From the IMG/VR virus record IMGVR_UViG_3300009514_000122: DNA of 16,876 nt; one strand, 5' to 3'. The notes under the pieces were generated by a model, which saw only the letters and a program-made list of their open reading frames with translations, was not told where the DNA came from and ran no database searches. Shown piece by piece: positions 16,370 through 16,443 of the stretch; the stretch's first letter is position 1, and each line of letters begins with the position of its first letter. Both the position numbers and the translations under genes were made by a program. Origin of the DNA: a virus.

Positions 16370-16443
16370 TACTGATGGTGGGAGTTGAACCCACAAACAT
16401 TAGATTTTGAATCTAACCGCTTTGCCAGTTAGCGTACATCAGC
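16370..16443 (-). tRNA. tRNA with anticodon CAA (Leu by anticodon) but a class I fold with a 5-nt variable loop
   Basis: Folded by hand: acceptor GCTGATG/CATCAGT (G1-U72), U8, D-stem CGCT/AGCG with a 9-nt loop containing GG, anticodon stem TTAGA/TCTAA, loop TTCAAAA, T-stem GTGGG/CCCAC, T-loop TTCAACT and discriminator A. No encoded CCA. Confidence 0.7.

Follow-up and report, generated by a model that had tools for sequence, protein, structure and literature searches.

A natural precedent for a leucine tRNA with a short variable arm exists in S. coelicolor, whose type I tRNA-Leu(CAA) is apparently essential and is leucylated by the single LeuRS of that organism, good charging in this system calling for a minimum of five variable-loop nucleotides (Fan et al. 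2019, PMC6614811). The same tRNA is not charged by E. coli LeuRS (PMC6614811), and the coliphages T4 and T5 encode class II tRNA-Leu (87 and 85 nt, respectively), which together suggest that the acceptance of short-arm substrates by LeuRS may depend on the host enzyme; the type of leucine-specific domain that a LeuRS carries is implicated in PMC6614811. Short-armed leucine tRNAs are uncommon but not new, being already annotated in deposited phage genomes; in the full-text literature that we searched, which lies outside subscription journals, we found no description of the short-arm tRNA-Leu family of phages and tRNA arrays. Here we describe a tRNA gene that we regard, with a probability of roughly 75%, as a functional phage-encoded tRNA-Leu(CAA) of the recurrent short-variable-arm (type I) kind found in the tRNA sets of phages and mobile elements. 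The initial annotation of this DNA had started from the premise that bacterial LeuRS needs the long arm, and the S. coelicolor precedent leaves that premise unsupported.

A single tRNA between a NADAR gene and an ATPase gene

The window, by which we mean the whole stretch of DNA analyzed, is one whole JGI contig of 16,876 nt, in which the sole ARAGORN tRNA call is a tRNA-Leu(caa) at 16369-16444 on the minus strand, the strand that also carries every long ORF of the window. Rfam model RF00005 matches 16443..16370 (minus) with 63.4 bits (gathering score, 29; E=5.5e-12) over its entire length (positions 1-71 of 71), and the CAA anticodon register is identical in the ARAGORN call and the Rfam alignment. 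On the combined evidence of ARAGORN, Rfam, the sequence itself and covariation among 14 family members, we place the 74-nt tRNA-Leu(CAA) gene at 16370..16443 (minus). The coordinates, the Leu anticodon CAA, the class I shape and the first pair G1-U72 had all been given in the initial annotation and are confirmed here; ARAGORN, which it had named as a check, returned the same register, and the Rfam score lies far above the gathering threshold.

The RNA can be written as GCUGAUG-UA-CGCU-AACUGGCAA-AGCG-G-UUAGA-UUCAAAA-UCUAA-UGUUU-GUGGG-UUCAACU-CCCAC-CAUCAGU-A, in which every helix is intact and all universal positions are present. The acceptor strands are GCUGAUG and CAUCAGU, with a G1•U72 pair and discriminator A73, and CCA is not encoded; the D-loop has 9 nt and contains G18G19. 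The anticodon CAA (positions 34-36; 16407..16409, minus, where the plus strand reads TTG) is placed by both ARAGORN and Rfam in the loop UUCAAAA. As read from the sequence, the variable loop UGUUU (positions 44-48; 16395..16399, minus) has 5 nt, and its U48 is able to form the Levitt pair with A15. Since the canonical class II hallmark is a variable stem-loop of >10 nt, and this defining long arm is absent, the window tRNA lies outside canonical class II tRNA-Leu, although it probably functions as such a tRNA does. Thermodynamic folding by itself (z=-3.4) did not reproduce the D-arm, and we rely on the covariance model and on covariation instead.

With respect to gene context, the order on the minus strand is NADAR stop codon (16454-16452), 8 nt, tRNA (16443-16370), 18 nt and ATPase start codon (ATG 16351). 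The NADAR-domain gene (16452..16876, minus; Pfam NADAR E=1e-48, model positions 33-162 of 163) reads without an in-frame stop to the end of the window, which is also the end of the contig, and is thus 5'-truncated; its homologs have 155-180 aa. The 8-nt spacer AUAUAUUU between the NADAR stop and the 5' end of the tRNA (16444..16451, minus) is a presumed RNase P leader, and the 18-nt spacer GUACCACAAGUUGAUAUU between A73 and the ATPase ATG (16352..16369, minus) a presumed 3' trailer. Downstream lies a gene for a BCS1-like AAA+ ATPase of 435 aa (15044..16351, minus; Pfam AAA and BCS1_N; phrog_7485 E=7e-81). The initial annotation had let the tRNA overlap the 5' end of this ATPase ORF, on account of a TTG at 16396 that is merely the first possible start of a mechanical ORF and that falls inside the variable loop and T-stem of the tRNA. 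The JGI gene call P0121 (435 aa, 'MIDIII...') begins at ATG 16351, the homolog P0122, 75% identical to P0121, begins at the equivalent residue, and the phrog_7485 profile starts at about the residue encoded by the same ATG. All three favor ATG 16351, so that the overlap resulted from an over-extended start.

Given the shared strand, the short spacers on either side and the finding that promoter- and terminator-like matches around the tRNA show no excess over shuffled sequence, it is plausible that NADAR gene, tRNA and ATPase gene are cotranscribed, with subsequent RNase P and 3' processing. That the tRNA and the BCS1-like ATPase might be linked in function was also considered, but is not supported: the slot upstream of the ATPase holds another, aberrant tRNA in the P0123 group, and the relatives L005, L006, L114 and L119-L121 have no tRNA. 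Six related loci, L108-L113, encode a BCS1-like ATPase that is 47% identical, directly upstream of which lies a 77-nt tRNA (2851-2927 in L108, and the same in L109-L113) with an Rfam score of 45 bits and an aberrant anticodon region, called 'Ile AAU' at an odd offset by ARAGORN; an AIPR abortive-infection-type gene is found upstream, and the downstream side has two tRNA-Ser of class II together with a weak AcrVA2-like match. In L120, about 2 kb separate a PolyA_pol/CCA-adding-family gene (2548-3735) and a homolog of the BCS1-like ATPase, and ARAGORN found no tRNA in the fetched 13-kb stretch.

We also observe features of the window that are unrelated in position to the tRNA. At 782-3385 (minus), it encodes an 867-aa protein with a major-vault-protein shoulder domain (Pfam MVP_shoulder, E=1e-21) and a weak Vault_3 repeat match. 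This protein has no match among the PHROGs, an unusual finding on a phage-like contig. The block at ~7957-10962 (minus) has a GC content of 0.43-0.44, compared to 0.35-0.39 in most other segments. Its products are a membrane protein of the Na+/Ca2+ exchanger family (E=5e-36), two paralogs matching phrog_5698 and an acidic protein of 150 aa that weakly matches DUF533, and the block may represent an ion- or stress-related module that was acquired separately. Megablast searches at the DNA level found no match of the window contig to deposited phages, and a metagenome scan for its close relatives returned only a 27%-identical relative.

Short-armed tRNA-Leu in phages, viral contigs and tRNA arrays

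Blastn comparison of the 74-nt tRNA with deposited phages gave ungapped matches to genes annotated as tRNA-Leu, namely in Acinetobacter phage Acibel004 (anticodon UAA; 85% identity over 61 nt, no gaps), in seven Gordonia phage records, the phages including Boopy, Forza and Sixama (CAA; 79% identity), in the Mycobacterium phage Wildcat and its relatives (CAA; 77% identity), and in Lactobacillus phage Semele (CAA; 78% identity). According to ARAGORN, the Leu slots in the array stretches fetched from these phages are occupied by short tRNAs with UAG, UAA or CAA, which in Wildcat, Semele and Acibel004 are the sole Leu tRNAs within the fetched stretch. The window tRNA shares a D-arm of the GCUAACUGGCAAAGC type, and the body so typed was found solely with Leu anticodons. 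Among the tRNAs predicted on IMG/VR contigs, 11 contain the D-arm 15-mer of the family. Nine of these are Leu tRNAs of 75-78 nt carrying CAA, UAG, UAA or CAG; the remaining two are copies of a single tRNA whose anticodon loop is abnormal in having 8 nt, and a non-Leu triplet anticodon occurs in none of the 11. On L056 and L062, we observe an identical 74-nt tRNA with the Leu-type D-arm GCUAACUGGCAAAGC, an enlarged anticodon loop and G73, for which ARAGORN reports the 4-base anticodon 'aatc'; it may resemble a frameshift suppressor in function or may simply be a degenerate copy.

Similar results were obtained with a fixed-geometry pattern that places the D-arm, U33, U48 and T-loop at short-arm spacing and leaves the anticodon free to avoid circularity, and for which we estimate <1 chance match. 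It matched eight times in a viral-contig collection that does not contain the window's own contig and three times in 185,579 species genomes, with a Leu anticodon in all 11 cases (UAA, 2; CAA, 4; CAG, 1; UAG, 4) and 10 distinct sequences. The three cellular matches, from one Blastocatellia MAG and two Isosphaeraceae MAGs, each lie within a dense array of 10 to 25 tRNAs, a layout typical of phages and mobile elements. One body combined with the anticodons of both Leu codon boxes, and with no other triplet, is what would be expected if the synthetase ignores the anticodon.

Across the fetched loci, many of which were chosen for similarity to the window tRNA so that the family statistics show recurrence and not frequency, 25 of 32 unique tRNA-Leu are short, and the variable loop has exactly 5 nt in 22 of these 25, as it does in the window tRNA, which equals the minimum for good charging in S. 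coelicolor (PMC6614811). At the same loci, long arms are kept by tRNA-Ser (14/14) and tRNA-Tyr (8/8). When tRNAs are ranked by similarity of their bodies to the window tRNA, ranks 1 to 4 are short Leu tRNAs; this ranking is partly circular, and we give it little weight since the loci had been selected by D-arm similarity. Several other phage tRNAs, called Tyr(AUA), Ile(UAU), Lys(UUU) or Asn(GUU) by ARAGORN (L004, 1743-1833 and 1858-1948; L026; L001, 594-679), have 14 to 24 extra nucleotides in the variable region, which may be introns, insertions or a sign of miscalled class II tRNAs.

The exact anticodon arm of the window tRNA is common to six viral contigs, five of which carry an 87-nt class II tRNA-Leu(CAA). 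Simple descent from a host class II tRNA-Leu via arm deletion was considered but is not borne out, as the two have only the 23-nt anticodon-arm segment in common and differ in the acceptor, D and T arms. On these five contigs, which are labeled viral (L007, L008, L010, L011 and L012), the class II tRNA-Leu(CAA) has a G1•U72 pair and adjoins a permuted (two-piece) tmRNA with the tag A(N/D)FTEYALAA; the five contigs probably represent prophage junctions or DNA of cellular origin. In SAR11, tRNA-Leu genes are known integration sites of pelagiphages.

Among the alternatives to an ordinary phage tRNA-Leu, the one that fares best is that the short arm was selected for escape from arm-recognizing MenT-/AbiEii-like nucleotidyltransferases or nucleases, a reading that we consider speculative and rather improbable. 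Phages would then have shed the arm to evade toxins or defense nucleases targeting class II tRNAs, securing a toxin-resistant supply of Leu-tRNA on top of ordinary decoding. The short-arm body is indeed almost confined to phages and dense tRNA arrays (eight viral and three genome matches), defense- or counter-defense-like genes are found in the neighborhood (NADAR here; AIPR and the weak AcrVA2-like match in L108-L113), and tRNA arrays have been discussed as putative anti-defense systems (PMC12803027). MenT3 targets tRNA-Ser, and AbiEii has been reported as likely preferring class II tRNAs. We know, however, of no toxin that selects tRNA-Leu through its arm, and arm loss may be merely tolerated: the arm is dispensable for LeuRS and required by SerRS, so that simple tolerance would leave Leu alone short. 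Class II tRNA-Leu is, moreover, retained by T4 and T5, and the loop UUCAAAA is identical in the class II cellular-type tRNA-Leu(CAA) of L007-L012, which argues that the loop carries no escape change. If the escape reading were true, a solitary tRNA beside an anti-defense-type NADAR gene would be a counter-defense element, beyond a codon supplement, and Leu would be the sole class II isotype able to lose its arm, given the difference between LeuRS and SerRS.

The fold itself is maintained by selection, as indicated by compensatory evolution across the family. Fourteen family members of 74 nt align without gaps, with U8, A14, A15, G18, G19, U33, U48 and A73 invariant, and 96.6% of the cloverleaf cells are paired in this alignment compared to 62% in shuffles and at most 47% with slid partners. 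Compensatory changes are seen in 18 of the 21 pairs. The covariation score is 0.94, whereas shuffles give 0.23 and slid partners do not exceed 0.19; none of 500 shuffles came as high. It is accordingly very unlikely that the gene is a nonfunctional relic, that is, a tRNA pseudogene or a leftover integration-site copy between two genes. What speaks for a relic is that this is the sole tRNA on a 16.9-kb contig and that a degenerate-looking tRNA occupies the same slot in the ATPase relatives L108-L113, but neither sits well with a full-length 63.4-bit match and intact helices and universal positions, nor with the compensatory changes. The att-site version of this reading was rejected, as the window holds no duplicated tRNA 3' segment: the 3' 25-mer of the tRNA is unique in the window, even at 3 mismatches. 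No integrase was seen among the annotated ORFs of the window, which is an incomplete contig.

UUG codons and leucine identity elements

The initial annotation had proposed that a class I body with CAA could be charged with another amino acid, and had pointed to UUG usage as informative. UUG makes up 81 of the 384 Leu codons of the contig (21%; 17 per 1000 codons) and is present in most of its genes. In alignments of about 120 homologs per gene, Leu is the commonest homolog residue at 13 of the 17 columns that correspond to TTG codons of the NADAR and ATPase genes, including NADAR residue 121 (Leu in 120/120) and ATPase residues 362 (119/119) and 334 (113/119), compared to a mean Leu fraction of 4 to 6% at the columns of non-Leu codons. 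Judging from this placement of TTG codons at Leu-conserved and even invariant columns, UUG means Leu on this contig. With the genome written for UUG as Leu, any other amino acid on a tRNA that reads UUG would be harmful at conserved sites.

The window tRNA also retains leucine identity elements. The identity set of E. coli-type LeuRS, as listed in PMC6614811 (A73, U8:A14, A15:U48, G18G19 with U55C56, and U54:A58), is complete in it, except that the listed residue 47n cannot exist in a 5-nt variable loop. The combination of A14, A15:U48 and A73 is found in 23 of 25 short Leu tRNAs and in 6 of 7 long-arm Leu tRNAs, compared to 20 of 175 other short tRNAs (Fisher P = 3e-16 for short Leu versus other short tRNAs). 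Taken by itself, A15:U48 occurs in 24/25 short and 6/7 long tRNA-Leu and in 59/175 other short phage-locus tRNAs; since this pair is common in phage tRNAs generally, the identity signature is enriched in tRNA-Leu, not exclusive to it.

A further observation concerns the first pair. G1•U72 is present in 13 of 25 unique short-arm Leu tRNAs and in 9 of the 14 aligned members, compared to 30 of 175 other short tRNAs, and pair 1:72 is only ever G•U (9) or G-C (5) in the aligned members, while the other acceptor pairs vary freely. The G1•U72 pair is also found in three long-arm Leu tRNAs, including the cellular-type tRNA of L007.

The suggestion that this tRNA is mischarged, a decoy or suppressor-like, with UUG decoded noncanonically, can draw on its unusual architecture and on the rejection of one natural type I tRNA-Leu by E. 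coli LeuRS, but it is the least likely of all the readings weighed here, given the Leu-conserved and invariant columns at which TTG stands in the NADAR and ATPase genes, the 81 uses of UUG across most contig genes, a body seen with four Leu anticodons from both codon boxes and with no non-Leu triplet, the retention of the identity elements A73, A14, A15:U48 and G18G19, and an anticodon that is complementary to no stop codon and pairs with a sense codon supplying 21% of Leu codons.

Proposed function and relation to known systems

For the reading that we prefer, a functional short-armed tRNA-Leu(CAA), the following route can be proposed. The tRNA would be transcribed together with the flanking NADAR and ATPase genes, released by RNase P and a 3' nuclease, and completed by a host enzyme that adds CCA. 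Host LeuRS, blind to the anticodon, would then leucylate it via A73 and the D-loop/T-loop core (U8:A14, A15:U48, G18G19), and the charged tRNA would supplement the decoding of UUG during infection.

These results remove a false lead at this locus, as we find no evidence for altered UUG decoding and no overlap of the tRNA with the ATPase gene. For annotation, they imply that a short-armed phage tRNA with a Leu anticodon should be called tRNA-Leu, and not a pseudogene or an oddity. Phages and mobile arrays of very different hosts repeatedly carry a tRNA-Leu lacking the long arm while tRNA-Ser and tRNA-Tyr stay long-armed, a recurrence that bears on how broadly bacterial LeuRS accept type I substrates and on whether arm loss brings a counter-defense benefit. 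SerRS requires the long variable arm.

When set beside known systems, the window tRNA resembles animal mitochondrial type I tRNA-Leu in its short variable loop; in mitochondrial tRNAs, however, the D and T loops are degenerate and the LeuRS is a dedicated one, whereas the window tRNA has canonical loops and a phage-like gene context. Class II tRNA-Leu, as found in E. coli, T4, T5 and the L007-type contigs, shares with it A73, U8:A14, A15:U48, a D-loop of 9 nt in which G18G19 is identically placed, and the anticodon loop UUCAAAA, and the L007-type tRNA-Leu(CAA) shares the whole 23-nt anticodon-arm segment. These tRNAs differ from it in having a 13- to 17-nt variable stem-loop, which the window tRNA lacks, and at pair 13:22, where the window tRNA has a Watson-Crick U13-A22 and the class II example a mismatched G·A. 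The S. coelicolor type I tRNA-Leu(CAA), compared here by its published description, has the same CAA anticodon, a 5-nt variable loop and U8-A14, which is an identity element there, but it is chromosomal, has C48 in place of U48 and is charged by a LeuRS that ignores A73 (PMC6614811). The short-arm tRNA-Leu of phage arrays (Acibel004, Boopy/Forza/Sixama, Wildcat and Semele) agree with the window tRNA in their length of 73 to 75 nt without CCA, in the 5-nt loop, in a D-arm of the AAYUGGCARAG form, and in A14, A15, U48, A73, a frequent G1•U72 and Leu anticodons. The difference lies in the setting, since the phage-array genes belong to large arrays of 11 to 27 predicted tRNAs, in which one or two further short Leu isoacceptors usually adjoin them, whereas the window, an unrelated contig, carries a single tRNA between protein-coding genes.
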